NCBI GenBank assembly: GCA_018653365.1
Contig: JABIAG010000001.1
Location: 128,001 to 192,000 of the forward strand
Source: Candidatus Woesearchaeota archaeon
GTDB taxonomy: Archaea; Nanobdellota; Nanobdellia; Woesearchaeales; JABIAG01
Direction of reading: 5' to 3'
Length of the DNA: 64,000 nt
Part shown: piece after piece, positions 3,203 to 56,049 of the stretch
Numbering within the stretch: the stretch's first letter is position 1
Layout: every line of letters starts with the position of its first letter
Position numbers and translations under genes: made by a program
The notes under the pieces: generated by a model
The model's input: the letters and a program-made list of their open reading frames with translations, nothing else
Database searches by the model: none
What the model was told of the DNA's origin: nothing

Positions 3203-5530
3203 ATGACAAAAAAGATAGTTAAAGTTGCAATATATATGGCCTTCCTTATGTTGTTATTTGCAATCAATTTTATTCTTGTAACTGGTATGCTTAATGATCC
3301 AAAATGTGATGCTGAATGGGGATCATTGCATCCACCTTGTAACGGTACTGAGCCATTTTGTTTTATTCAACCAGCAATGAGTTTTGATGAACAGGATGAA
3401 ATTTGGGCAGTTGAATGCGGAATACTATATGCTTGGGATGGAACTGAACATGAATGTCAGGTCGCAGGCCAACTTATTGAGTCCGAATGTAGTGTCAGGT
3501 GTGAACAAGGAAAAATTCTCAGCTTAGGTGATGGAGATTCATGTGATGGTGGTGTTTGTTGTGGTGGTTCTTGTCGTTCACCATCTGATTGCTATGAATG
3601 TGTGGCTAGTAAATGGGTAAGCAAGTTCGATTCTGATAATTGTGAAACCTGCGAAAATAATAAAATTGTAAAAACAACAGGAAATAATTGTAATCAAGAT
3701 AAAGGTACTTGTTGTGCAGGCACATGTAATCTAAAAAATGAATGTAAAACCTGTGATACAACGGGTAATTGGATTGATACTCCTAATGCACTTTGTGATA
3801 ATGGAAATGGCCAATGTTGCACAGGGGGAGAATGTTTGCCAATAATGGGATGCGAATTATGTATTGATCTTGGCGGGGGTACATGGGCAAAACAATTTTT
3901 ACCAGCCGACGTAACATGCACTGATGAAGACGGTAATGGAAACTGCTGTGCTGGGACATGCGAACACTTAACAGGTTGTGATTTTTGTGATAAAAGCAGC
4001 GACCCAATAGGTACTGTTGAAATAGGTGCCGATAATGAACCTTGTACTGACTCAGGAGGATATGCAGGTTCATGTTGTGGGGGTAGCTGTGAAAAAATGT
4101 CTGATTGTGAGGAATGTGATTCCGGAGAAATTGAAGATAAAGATGATGGCGGATCTTGTGGATCCGGTTATTGTTGTGGCGGATATTGTTTACAGTCACC
4201 ATCAGTATGCGATGGTGATGATGATTGTGCACCGTTTAAGACAGCAAGGGGATTACAAAAAACCTGTGTTGAAGAAGTATCAAGTGCAGTTAATGCATGT
4301 GAAAAAGAATGTGCAATAACTTGCACCAATGGAGATGCGTATGAAACGCCCTGTACTGACAAATACGGAGAGGAGTATGTTCCTTCCTGTGATGAAACAG
4401 ATCACACAAGACACTATTATGTATGTGGAATAGATGGAACTTGTGAAGAAGCTGCAGACCCAACTTACGATTATCTTTGTGATTGCGTATTGGATCCTAG
4501 CGTATGTGGCCCATATACTTGCTGTGGTGAAGAAGAAGGATGTGTCCATCTTGATAACAATGATGCAAATTGCGGTTCTTGCGGTATTACTTGTGAGACA
4601 GGCATATGTGCAAATGGTGTATGCCAATGTAGTAACCCCAATGAAGATATGTGTGAGGTAACTAGTGACGGATTTGGGGGGTGTACAGATACTAGTTCAG
4701 ATTCAGAATTTTGTGGCATGGACTGTTGCAAAGATGTTTCTTCGGGGGGATTATCAACATGTACAGATTGCACAACGTCAGGAATGATTTGTTTATCTGG
4801 GGGATGCGCACTTCCTGCCTCAAGCAGTTCATTTAAGTCAGCTAGCTTTAGCATATATCAAGCAAGAAAAGAATCTGATTCATTAGGGAATACAGTTGCC
4901 TACCAATTTTTGCCCTCTGGTCAAAAGTTTATTTCACCAGTTGATTTCTTTTTAAAATACAGGGGAGAAGAATTTAATGCAGACAATAACATTAATGTTT
5001 ATAGATATGAAGATGATCAAATGGAAGTAAAGATAATAAGATCAGCTTCAAAAGAAATTGGTTTCGAAGGAGGAACTATTAGTATTGGGAATGTAATTTT
5101 AACTATTCCTCCCAGTACATTATTTAAAACTACACCTATAATAATTAATGAAGTTTATATTGTAAATGAATTAACTGAATTCGTGAATAGTGAAAGTAAT
5201 GAAGCTGAGAATTATTTAATTGATGAGCAGTATCAACAACAAGACAAGATGAATGATTGGGGAATGCAAGAACCAGAGGGTATGCAAGACGAAATGAATG
5301 AATATATGGACGATTATGGGATGCCTGATGAAAGCCAAATGCAAGATGAAAGTCAAAGTTACAATGAAGGCTTTTTTGGAACAGAAGGGTATGCTTTTCA
5401 GTCAAAAGAAAGGATGAAACAACTTTTTTCACAAACAAAAACAAAGAGTGCATTAACTTTGACAGTAATAATCATTGCTCTAATATTGGGTGTTTACTTT
5501 TCTTTTAGCATTATTAAAAATCATAAATAA
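3203..5530 (+). CDS. Cys-rich repetitive cell-surface protein (signal/TM, Cys repeats, ZU5-like domain, acidic linker, C-terminal TM)
   Basis: N-terminal hydrophobic segment; six C..G.CC.G.C repeats; CVHLDNNDANCGSCG motif; C-terminal anchor. Confidence 0.85.
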   Translation: MTKKIVKVAIYMAFLMLLFAINFILVTGMLNDPKCDAEWGSLHPPCNGTEPFCFIQPAMSFDEQDEIWAVECGILYAWDGTEHECQVAGQLIESECSVRCEQGKILSLGDGDSCDGGVCCGGSCRSPSDCYECVASKWVSKFDSDNCETCENNKIVKTTGNNCNQDKGTCCAGTCNLKNECKTCDTTGNWIDTPNALCDNGNGQCCTGGECLPIMGCELCIDLGGGTWAKQFLPADVTCTDEDGNGNCCAGTCEHLTGCDFCDKSSDPIGTVEIGADNEPCTDSGGYAGSCCGGSCEKMSDCEECDSGEIEDKDDGGSCGSGYCCGGYCLQSPSVCDGDDDCAPFKTARGLQKTCVEEVSSAVNACEKECAITCTNGDAYETPCTDKYGEEYVPSCDETDHTRHYYVCGIDGTCEEAADPTYDYLCDCVLDPSVCGPYTCCGEEEGCVHLDNNDANCGSCGITCETGICANGVCQCSNPNEDMCEVTSDGFGGCTDTSSDSEFCGMDCCKDVSSGGLSTCTDCTTSGMICLSGGCALPASSSSFKSASFSIYQARKESDSLGNTVAYQFLPSGQKFISPVDFFLKYRGEEFNADNNINVYRYEDDQMEVKIIRSASKEIGFEGGTISIGNVILTIPPSTLFKTTPIIINEVYIVNELTEFVNSESNEAENYLIDEQYQQQDKMNDWGMQEPEGMQDEMNEYMDDYGMPDESQMQDESQSYNEGFFGTEGYAFQSKERMKQLFSQTKTKSALTLTVIIIALILGVYFSFSIIKNHK

Positions 5531-5711: not shown

Positions 5712-6197
5712 ATGGAACTAAAAATATTAAATTCTCGCGAATTAAAAGAATTAAGAAAAATAATAGAAAAACAATACGGAATAACAGAAAAGTTAGATTA
5801 CGTTTTCTTATTATCTGGAAAAGATGATGTTTATGTAATTAATGATTCAGTTAAGAATCTGGATTTGGATAGCATAAAAATAAACACAATAGGAATTTAT
5901 ATCGGTGAAAACAAATTTGACACATTTAGACCCAGTATAGAAGGATCACAAATATTTGGCCCACTAGCAAAGAAGAACATATTAGAGGTTGATTACAAAG
6001 TTATGAAAATGTGGATGTATGGATTAGACATTCCCTGTAAAGAAGAGTTAGAAGGATATGTAATGATAAAATCAGGTACTGATTATATTGGATCAGGAAA
6101 ATACAAAGAATGTGCTCAGAAATCCGAGATTTCTGGTACCACGACAAGTGGTAAAATTCTAAACCATGTACCAAAAGGAAGAAGAATACATGAATAA
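5712..6197 (+). CDS. RsmF/NOL1-NOP2 C-terminal-like (pre-PUA/PUA) ribosome biogenesis protein
   Basis: GIYIG, RPSIEGSQIFG.LAKKNILEV, W..G.D and GSGK...ILNHVPKGRR. Confidence 0.75.
   Translation: MELKILNSRELKELRKIIEKQYGITEKLDYVFLLSGKDDVYVINDSVKNLDLDSIKINTIGIYIGENKFDTFRPSIEGSQIFGPLAKKNILEVDYKVMKMWMYGLDIPCKEELEGYVMIKSGTDYIGSGKYKECAQKSEISGTTTSGKILNHVPKGRRIHE
6113..6135 (+). repeat. palindromic REP-like element inserted in-frame
   Basis: TGCT-CAGAAATC-CGA-GATTTCTG is the reverse-orientation match to the copies at 14364 and 56022. Confidence 0.65.
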
Positions 6198-6199
6198 AA

Positions 6200-6928
6200 A
6201 TGAGTAAAGAACAATATGACAAAATTGCAGACGAATATTCTCGAATGCGTAATTCAACAAAAGAATATGTCCTTATCCCTACTTTTAAAAAAATAATTGG
6301 CAAGGTTCAAAACAAATCAGTATTAGACCTTGCTTGCGGAGAGGGGTTTTTTACAAGAATTTTGGCTGAAATGAATCCGTCAGAACTTATTGGACTTGAT
6401 TTTTCTAAAGAATTAATAAAAAAAGCCAAAGATCACAATTCAAACATCACTTATCTGGTTGAAGATGTTTTAACACTAAACTTAAATAAACAGTTTGATT
6501 TAATTACTGCAGTATATTTGTTAAACTATGCTAAAACTAAAGATGAATTAGCTATAATGTGTCAAAATATTTACACTCATTTAAATGAAACTGGTAATTT
6601 CTCAACAATTACTACCTCGCCTTCACTTAAACCAATGAAAGACTTTGAATATGAAAGAAAATTCTCAAGTGTTGCAGGAAAAAAATTATTTGAAGATGGT
6701 GACGAAGTTCGAATGGAAATTATGCAGGATGGAGAAAAATTATTAGAAGTAATTAATTATTATTGGACAAAAGAAACTTACGAAGATTGTTTGAAGAAAG
6801 CAGGATTTAAAAAAATTCAATGGGTAAAAGCAATAATTTCTGAAGAAGGCACGAACTTATACGGAACTGAATTCTGGGATAAGTTTCAAAAGAATCATTC
6901 AACAATTGGGATTGTTTGTGAAAAATAA
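6200..6928 (+). CDS. class I SAM-dependent methyltransferase (ToxA-like)
   Basis: VLDLACGEG motif I; FDLITAVYLLNYA. Confidence 0.85.
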   Translation: MSKEQYDKIADEYSRMRNSTKEYVLIPTFKKIIGKVQNKSVLDLACGEGFFTRILAEMNPSELIGLDFSKELIKKAKDHNSNITYLVEDVLTLNLNKQFDLITAVYLLNYAKTKDELAIMCQNIYTHLNETGNFSTITTSPSLKPMKDFEYERKFSSVAGKKLFEDGDEVRMEIMQDGEKLLEVINYYWTKETYEDCLKKAGFKKIQWVKAIISEEGTNLYGTEFWDKFQKNHSTIGIVCEK

Positions 6929-14359: not shown

Positions 14360-14524
14360 ATGATACAACAAAAATCGAAGATTTTTGAGCATCATTTCCA
14401 ACCAGGAGGAAAAATGATAGACCTAAGCCAAAAAACAATAAGTGAATTATTTTATGACCAAATTAAAAGAGTGACTCGCGAAAGTAGTTTTGACATACAA
14501 TACAGTGAGTGGTGGGCAAAATGA
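14360..14524 (+). CDS. microprotein 1 (54 aa, or 36 aa from ATG 14414), not in ORF track
   Basis: SD GAGGTGG before 14360 and GGAGG before 14414; MIDLSQKTISELFYDQIKRVTRESSFDIQYSEWWAK; ATGA overlap with the next ORF. Confidence 0.7.
   Translation: MIQQKSKIFEHHFQPGGKMIDLSQKTISELFYDQIKRVTRESSFDIQYSEWWAK
14364..14394 (+). repeat. palindromic REP-like element
   Basis: TACAA-CAAAAATC-GAA-GATTTTTG-AGCATCA. Confidence 0.8.
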
Positions 14525-56021: not shown

Positions 56022-56049
56022 TACAACAAAAATCAAAGATTTTTGAGCA
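56022..56049 (+). repeat. palindromic REP-like element
   Basis: TACAA-CAAAAATC-AAA-GATTTTTG-AGCA; 27/28 identical to the copy at 14364. Confidence 0.85.

Follow-up and report, generated by a model that had tools for sequence, protein, structure and literature searches.

In-frame insertion of a palindromic hairpin sequence in a PUA-protein gene of a Woesearchaeota archaeon

Palindromic selfish DNA that colonises genes in frame is textbook biology for Rickettsia and for organelles. Does it also occur in Archaea? The question is raised by one gene in a 64,000-nt stretch of DNA, here called the window, of Candidatus Woesearchaeota archaeon (assembly GCA_018653365.1, contig JABIAG010000001.1, positions 128,001 to 192,000 of the forward strand). 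The gene, an open reading frame (ORF) at 5712–6197 on the plus strand, encodes a 161-aa stand-alone pre-PUA plus PUA protein (RsmF C-terminal-like or Nip7-like), and an earlier note made from the sequence alone had placed a palindromic element inside it and compared that element with the Rickettsia palindromic elements (RPEs). A full-text literature search found no published account of such elements in DPANN archaea, or of in-frame palindromic elements in Archaea. We identified a 39-nt insertion in this gene and propose, with a probability of roughly 0.7, that it is a very small, protein-free, hairpin-forming selfish DNA element that behaves like an RPE.

The 39-nt insert and its host protein

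The insert occupies positions 6111–6149 and reads TGTGCT-CAGAAATC-CGA-GATTTCTG-GTACCACGACAAGT, as the earlier note had described. It is preceded by the codon GAA (E133, 6108–6110) and followed by GGT AAA, and its 13 codons encode CAQKSEISGTTTS, residues 134–146, in the context ...GSGKYKE-CAQKSEISGTTTS-GKILNH... The host gene is intact, with the next gene beginning at 6200. Among 26 aligned homologues, CAQKSEISGTTTS is unique to the window protein. All of the others (25/25), including two that are ~89% identical over the aligned columns, join GKYKE straight to G/NKILNH, as the earlier note had stated. At the DNA level, the orthologues of the sister species (G002) and of G001, which both belong to the same genus, and of G003, which belongs to the same family, each show one clean gap of 39 nt directly after the GAA codon. 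We looked for orthologues with a loop of the same length and no palindrome, and found none. Taken together, the gap in the DNA of the relatives and the 25 insert-free homologues confirm, at the level of sequence comparison, that the insertion is real, in frame and specific to this lineage. By the same alignments the element entered the PUA-protein gene after the split of this species from its sister species.

An assembly artefact can be dismissed: 49 contigs on record encode exactly this 161-aa protein, and the insert recurs without any mismatch in contigs of four marine metagenome runs (2012–2017, at least three studies), some of which possibly supplied the assembly itself. The insert-free form was not seen in contigs of these four runs, although contigs cannot exclude rare variants.

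Folded as RNA, the insert forms two adjacent hairpins (−16.3 kcal/mol, z = −4.1), and the same pair can form in either DNA strand when single-stranded. The first (6117–6135) is the perfect palindrome CAGAAATC-CGA-GATTTCTG, with an 8-bp stem and a 3-nt loop; shuffled sequences give 0.03 such palindromes expected by chance. It is the G:C variant of the core of a repeat family. The flank TGCT (6113–6116 on the plus strand, AGCA on the minus strand) is asymmetric and conserved and orients the element antisense to the gene. The second hairpin, TACCAC-GACAA-GTGGTA (6137–6153), is specific to the insert, and its last 4 nt (GGTA, 6150–6153) are native gene sequence within the Gly-Lys codons.

The host protein belongs with the RsmF C-terminal and Nip7-type PUA proteins, as it has the two-lobed pre-PUA plus PUA fold and a PF13636 match. 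Among 5.8 billion proteins searched, 88 homologues were found, most of them 145–155 aa long, in Woesearchaeota/Nanoarchaeota-type (DPANN) assemblies. These homologues carry PF13636, and in the 161-aa protein the match covers residues 100–132 only, breaking off at the insert, and because of the 13 additional residues its score of 23.8 bits falls short of the 27.6 required. An AlphaFold2 model built on the homologue alignment (overall predicted local distance difference test score, pLDDT, 89.8) retrieved 2frx_A (E = 3.4e-7), 3m4x and 2p38_A with Foldseek, and its fold is close to the pre-PUA/PUA C terminus of YebU/RsmF and also to Nip7. Residues 134–146 form a loop (pLDDT ~71) between strands 124–134 and 146–151, at the tip of a β-hairpin where insert-free homologues have a tight turn (...KYKE-GK...). 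The 13 residues would thus lengthen the turn of a surface β-hairpin, a position at which the model suggests that they are tolerated. The surface loop foreseen by the earlier note is therefore present in the model. Further translated copies, which that note had proposed to find by their QKS.I[FS] peptides, did not emerge in this genome: across all long ORFs [QEK]KS.I[FS] gave 4 matches, and a palindrome lies beneath only the one in the 5712–6197 gene. Two of the other matches were compared with G002, where one proved to be native sequence and no counterpart emerged for the other.

A hairpin family with copies absent from the sister species

Mismatch-tolerant and loop-tolerant scans of the genome were used to take a census of the core hairpin. 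The family consensus is CA-N-AAATC-N3-GATTT-N'-TG, an 8-bp stem with a 3-nt loop, often extended by TGCT/AGCA. A relaxed pattern, CANAAATC-N3-GATTTNTG, occurs at three sites in the window (6117, 14369 and 56027; 0.08 expected) and at nine sites in the 1.09-Mb genome, and the family core accounts for 9/62 of all perfect 8-bp/3-nt palindromes in the genome. With up to three mismatches allowed, the scan finds 13 copies that retain at least 7/8 pairs; other loop lengths add 3. The core at 14369–14387, CAAAAATC-GAA-GATTTTTG, and the intergenic core at 56027–56045, CAAAAATC-AAA-GATTTTTG, are both flanked by TACAA and AGCA. The latter lies 10 nt past the stop codon of an Orn/DAP-decarboxylase-like gene and 73 nt ahead of the start of a gene of the major facilitator superfamily (MFS). 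The copy in the PUA-protein gene is in reverse orientation, with its AGCA flank on the minus strand, and its core is one compensated pair (A:T to G:C) apart from that at 14369. The TGCT/AGCA flank is also found at the copies 14369, 56027, C3:89446, C3:105006 and C1:532842 (sites outside the window are given as contig and position), and the order variable hairpin, core, AGCA is common to the 39-nt insert, C3:89446, C3:105006 and C3:61548.

The third stem pair of the copies is A:T, G:C or T:A, and a scan of this genome that allowed up to 3 mismatches, and was able to detect copies mixing the two arms, found none of these. Among 47 distinct sites from ~30 genomes, the free pair N/N' is complementary in 42 (26 A:T, 15 G:C, 1 T:A). 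Shuffling the free pairs gave a mean of 21.7 complementary sites, and 0/100000 shuffles reached 42. Judged by this covariation, which upholds the earlier reading of a compensated change that preserves the hairpin, the pairing is shown to be under selection.

A crude ORF map, in which ~91% of the genome counts as coding, classes 11/13 copies as intergenic. The map is not exact at either end: C3:105006, which it calls genic, proved to be intergenic, since the true stop codon is conserved upstream in G002, and the 11 "intergenic" copies include one in RNase P RNA and one in the extension of a microprotein. Only one copy in this genome is internal to a protein gene. Many copies lie 3–27 nt past stop codons and one lies 31 nt past a tRNA, and a family-like hairpin (C3:95881) is situated inside an intron-bearing tRNA gene (C3:95839–95970). 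The neighbouring genes are unrelated to one another: enolase, two NUDIX genes, an MFS transporter, a decarboxylase, a GyrI-like gene and Dus. Among Rfam families, only tRNA and RNase P matched around the copies. At G000:C2:81058–81840 in this genome (G000), a free-standing LAGLIDADG endonuclease-like gene (PF14528) adjoins the two tandem NUDIX genes, which have a hairpin copy between them.

We rebuilt the sister species from 45 contigs (794 kb) and aligned the orthologous sites. Three copies besides the 39-nt insert are clean indels against G002: window 14360, C2:37394 and C2:92641. The first is a 54-nt insertion (14360–14413, plus strand; 18 codons, no stop codon) exactly at the start codon of a conserved microprotein, and it contains the core at 14369–14387, in agreement with the earlier proposal that this copy is translated if the start codon is at 14360. 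G002 reads ...GGAGGTGGTTAAC|ATGATAGACC... at this place and lacks exactly the 54 nt. ATGATA is duplicated around the element, AGGAGG stands four bases ahead of the original ATG (14414), and an antisense ATCAT pairs with the start region. In the outgroup G001 the spacing from the hairpin of the 5' untranslated region to the ATG is the same 27–29 nt as in the empty form, which indicates that the insertion arose in the lineage studied here. With the duplicated ATGATA and an AGGAGG of the element's own, either of the two starts of the extended microprotein could be used. The microprotein (window 14360–14524) reads MIDLSQKTISELFYDQIK... in G002 and G001 and has here an 18-codon in-frame N-terminal extension from the 54-nt insert.

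The second indel (C2:37394) is a ~50-nt insert on another start codon, with ATGATAACA duplicated, whose upstream copy runs into TGA. The third (C2:92641) is a 41-nt insert inside RNase P RNA, composed of a GNRA-capped hairpin and the family core and absent from G002. The RNase P RNA gene (G000:C2:92466–92833; locus L126 267–634) matches RF00373 with 133.8 bits, and the 41-nt insert is left unaligned to the Rfam model. Seen through these genome comparisons, the family is shown to be mobile on the time scale of species. At a further intergenic site, G000:C1:532842 (G002:C4:32956–33076), the two species have different hairpin elements, which suggests a possible hot spot for hairpin inserts.

The existence of such a family bears on another account of the 39 nt: that they arose de novo on the spot, for instance by slippage or as a palindrome templated during repair, and resemble the family by chance, or else that they are an artefact of assembly. 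We consider this extremely improbable. The 39-mer has no donor as a whole and its second hairpin re-uses 4 nt of the target, as a local event might; but a random 39-mer of this composition would show the 16-position core and a complementary free pair with a chance of ~1e-7 (estimated from base frequencies), the TGCT flank is shared with other copies too, and the insert is identical in independent assemblies.

Occurrence across the order and other in-frame copies

The family pattern is present in 140/301 genomes of the order, at up to 19 copies per genome, as against 3 genomes for a reversed control pattern. Five unpublished genomes (G124, G135, G186, G208 and G210) are counted in this tally, and the order across which the stem sequence is conserved spans >130 families. 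Bursts of copies that are identical down to the loop are seen within single genomes (G024 and G281). In G024 (L129, L132, L135, L138, L141) about a dozen near-identical repeats of ~190–250 nt, without an Rfam match, include a mismatched core, CATAAATC-ATA-GATTTCTG, as one module; these mismatched copies seem to go back to a single event with subsequent amplification. Beyond the window genome the core often has a similar hairpin as tandem partner, with AGCATGCT between the two, or is itself a module of longer repeats.

In G003 and G004, both of the same family as the window genome, the element lies 31–43 nt past tRNA genes and is flanked by direct repeats of 19–27 nt (the 27-nt example is from G004, an unpublished genome). 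The direct repeats correspond to the tRNA 3' end from the T-loop on, and an inverted copy of the T-loop adjoins the core. Two 74-nt units in tandem, each composed of a hairpin element and a repeat of the tRNA 3' end, come after a tRNA-Met gene of G003 (L015 1392–1620, G003:C2), and one unit with a 19-nt repeat and the inverted T-loop copy beside the core comes after a tRNA-Ser gene (L011 1385–1545). A CRISPR reading of the tandem 74-nt units was ruled out, as each "spacer" is the tRNA-Met 3' end, copied without change. The complement of flanking target sequence beside the core measures 7–13 nt at the tRNA sites, 5–7 nt at the two start-codon inserts and 4 nt in the PUA-protein gene, where the sense/antisense pattern is just GGTA / TACC / GGTA. 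It appears to be a recurring feature of the family, for which the 4 nt at the last site alone are too short to serve as evidence.

In-frame copies are not confined to the window genome. In G005, from another family-level lineage, the gene of ribosomal protein uL3 (PF00297; L053:240–1256, G005:C3) contains a 17-aa (51-nt) in-frame insert, ...TQSVSEHAQKSSISDIK..., that lies over a family double hairpin with its halves joined by AGCATGCT and is absent from the uL3 of the window genome. The CxxCxxCC protein of G102 probably has an in-frame family insert too. With the PUA protein, the microprotein start and uL3, the compared sequences show in-frame insertion to be recurrent.

These lengths bear on whether the insert is translated or removed as RNA. 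If the tRNA-splicing endonuclease excised the 39 nt as an intervening sequence, as it does with the intron of crenarchaeal Cbf5 mRNA, a protein of the normal 148 aa would result. DPANN archaea are rich in non-canonical introns, a family-like hairpin does lie within the intron-bearing tRNA at C3:95881, and an exon-exon helix AGAAU/AUUCU can close the insert. The fold, however, consists of two stacked hairpins in a multiloop, and not of two 3-nt bulges around a 4-bp helix; the 3-nt/4-bp/3-nt motif of the archaeal bulge-helix-bulge intron was absent from the minimum-free-energy and centroid folds of the insert, and that candidate was rejected. Moreover, the inserts in reading frames are 39, 54 and 51 nt long, all multiples of 3 and stop-free, as against 41 and 50 nt in RNA or duplicated-start contexts. 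This difference is predicted by translation and not by splicing; it is in keeping with selection on the reading frame and speaks against removal as an intron, which we regard as very improbable. Most tRNA genes of the window genome appear to carry introns: ARAGORN reports 12 tRNA genes against at least 27 by the Rfam tRNA model, and many of the latter are 84–150 nt long.

A host signal is a more serious alternative to a selfish element, though still an unlikely one. The core hairpin would then serve mainly in 3'-end formation or termination, in RNA stability or as the target of a conserved protein that binds RNA or DNA, and the copy in the PUA-protein gene would be a by-product of recombination or conversion, or functional in pausing or internal regulation. 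Such a role is in line with the conservation of the stem across an order of >130 families, with the many copies placed 3–27 nt past stop codons or ~31 nt past tRNA genes, and with orthologous copies that persist between the window genome and G002. The A:T variant also gives a T5 run on both strands, and a T5 run is an archaeal terminator signal. On the other hand, copies are found where a terminator would be harmful (the PUA-protein ORF, uL3, RNase P RNA, a tRNA intron and start codons), neighbouring genes are functionally unrelated, identical copies occur in bursts inside single genomes, and the target is duplicated at tRNA 3' ends. The two readings are not mutually exclusive, and a host function of the hairpin, for instance at transcript 3' ends, could coexist with selfish spread. 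A transcription-factor operator was ruled out by the covariation of the free pair and by the indels in unrelated contexts.

Known elements and the means of spread

RPEs are inserted in frame in unrelated genes at positions compatible with the fold (PMC10969869). They measure ~100–150 bp, encode a conserved peptide of tens of residues, end in a CGTC tag and are known from Rickettsia only, with 44 copies in one genome (PMC10969869, PMC3733652). The archaeal family resembles them as a set of dispersed palindromic repeats without a transposase of their own, with in-frame copies in unrelated genes (the PUA protein, the microprotein start and the uL3 of G005) and further copies in RNA genes and intergenic DNA. 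In both, the host genes are often essential and the element is read through, by prediction in the archaeon, as extra peptide at positions compatible with the fold. It differs in size (a 39-nt insert of which only a 19–23-nt hairpin is conserved), in having most copies outside genes, in sharing no more peptide than QKS.I[SF], in its flank TGCT/AGCA in place of CGTC, in its DPANN host, and in the lack of any sequence relation. The parallel drawn by the earlier note thus holds for behaviour and fails for membership, and our best reading is that the family behaves like RPEs but is neither an RPE, nor a REP/RAYT element, nor a miniature inverted-repeat transposable element (MITE).

Repetitive extragenic palindromes (REPs) and REPINs are imperfect palindromes of 20–40 nt, mostly found outside genes just past their ends, sometimes in head-to-head pairs and occasionally in genes (PMC3733652). 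The 19-nt core, intergenic in 11/13 copies by the crude ORF map, fits this description, and the hairpin probably acts as RNA or as single-stranded DNA in both. Unlike REPs, which depend on REP-associated tyrosine transposases (RAYTs; Y1, HUH type), the archaeal copies lack a GTAG/CGTC end, the aligned copies showing TACAA, TGC(T) and AGCA flanks instead; a cognate Y1 transposase was found neither in the window genome nor in most high-copy genomes, the copies number tens and not hundreds, and the host is an archaeon.

Organellar elements offer a further comparison. Yeast mitochondrial GC clusters, fungal double-hairpin elements, the repetitive hairpin elements of sponges (PMC2800124) and the palindromes of Volvox (PMC2670323) are, like the archaeal family, tiny units of one or two hairpins in intergenic DNA, rRNA and protein genes, with no identified enzyme and with lineage-specific bursts. 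They differ from the archaeal family in residing in organelle genomes, in being usually GC-rich in an AT-rich background and in having no known stem conserved across an order. MITEs are also short, non-autonomous, structured and able to make in-frame fusions, and they carry the terminal inverted repeats of a parent insertion sequence (IS) and a target duplication of fixed length (PMC10969869). For the archaeal family we saw no parent element with such terminal repeats and no TnpB (other transposase families were not searched), and the duplication is absent at the 39-nt insert and measures 6, 9–12 and 19–27 nt at other sites.

As an RPE-like selfish element, the family would work as follows. 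Its conserved module would be the 8-bp stem with its 3-nt loop, usually beside a second, variable hairpin, which in the PUA-protein gene may have been built partly from the target's own GGTA. The element would survive there by comprising a whole number of codons, leaving no stop in frame (...AQKSEIS...) and lengthening a surface turn, so that the gene would stay functional and the element would be read as a 13-residue loop, transcribed and translated and not removed. The family would spread by copy-and-paste through host or trans-acting machinery that recognises the conserved stem, and the inverted target copies beside several inserts suggest that some of the synthesis may be templated on the target.

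Several observations weigh against this proposal. No donor of the 39-mer was found, the best match in the genome being 14 nt (blastn-short) with no second copy, and only ~23/39 nt (TGCT and the core) are family-like, the other 16 nt belonging to the second, insert-specific hairpin. There is no clear target-site duplication at 6111–6149, a repeat of at most GGTA/TGGTA being too short to qualify. The copy number is low (9–19 at most), and conservation of the stem across the order could equally mean a host function. Some copies are old, among them C3:60587 and C3:61548, which are orthologous in G002 and partly decayed there, so that the insertions differ in age. Y1/HUH (PF01797) and TnpB were not found in the window genome (94.9% complete), in which other transposase families were not searched. 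Across the order, 102/301 genomes have Y1 genes, and the motif occurs in 56/102 of these (55%) as compared to 84/199 Y1-negative genomes (42%), leaving 84 motif genomes without Y1. Several of the genomes richest in copies (G024, G281, G020 and G000) lack a Y1 gene, whereas the motif is missing from two genomes that contain 11 Y1 genes. We therefore rejected IS200/IS605, RAYT and TnpB as mobilisers, as they are missing from the window genome and only weakly associated with the motif across the order. The genome has three tyrosine recombinases, one of which, an Xer-like gene (G000:C3:105511–106335, 273 aa) near the end of contig C3, lies ~490 nt from the copy C3:105006. A dif/Xer or integrase core site was considered improbable, since the 8+3+8 geometry and the covariation misfit a two-arm site with a 6–8-bp spacer.

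More tentatively, and with odds somewhat short of even, CA-N-AAATC/GATTT-N'-TG may be the recognition module of an undescribed class of protein-free archaeal mobile DNA. Such a class would have spread over the Woesearchaeales by conserved host or trans-acting machinery that copies the target in direct and inverted orientation, making loops in proteins (the PUA protein and uL3), translation starts, expansions of RNase P RNA and possibly tRNA-intron sequence. Within a genome of ~1.1 Mb every insertion must be compatible with function, and the PUA-protein locus offers a clean and datable case, with an empty site in the sister species and a loop added to an RNA-binding protein of the ribosome-biogenesis type. 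As this locus and the sister insertions demonstrate, a single 19-nt hairpin module can remodel four kinds of target: proteins, start codons (with a Shine-Dalgarno-like AGGAGG of its own), catalytic RNA and the ends of tRNA genes. The stem conserved across the order could serve as bait for finding the mobilising machinery and as a marker for the origin of lineage-specific protein loops, and perhaps of tRNA-intron sequence, in DPANN archaea.

Elsewhere in the window, positions 3203–5530 encode a cysteine-rich protein of 775 aa, without a Pfam match, that combines numerous repeats of the CxxC/CCGG type with an acidic tail and a membrane anchor at its C terminus.
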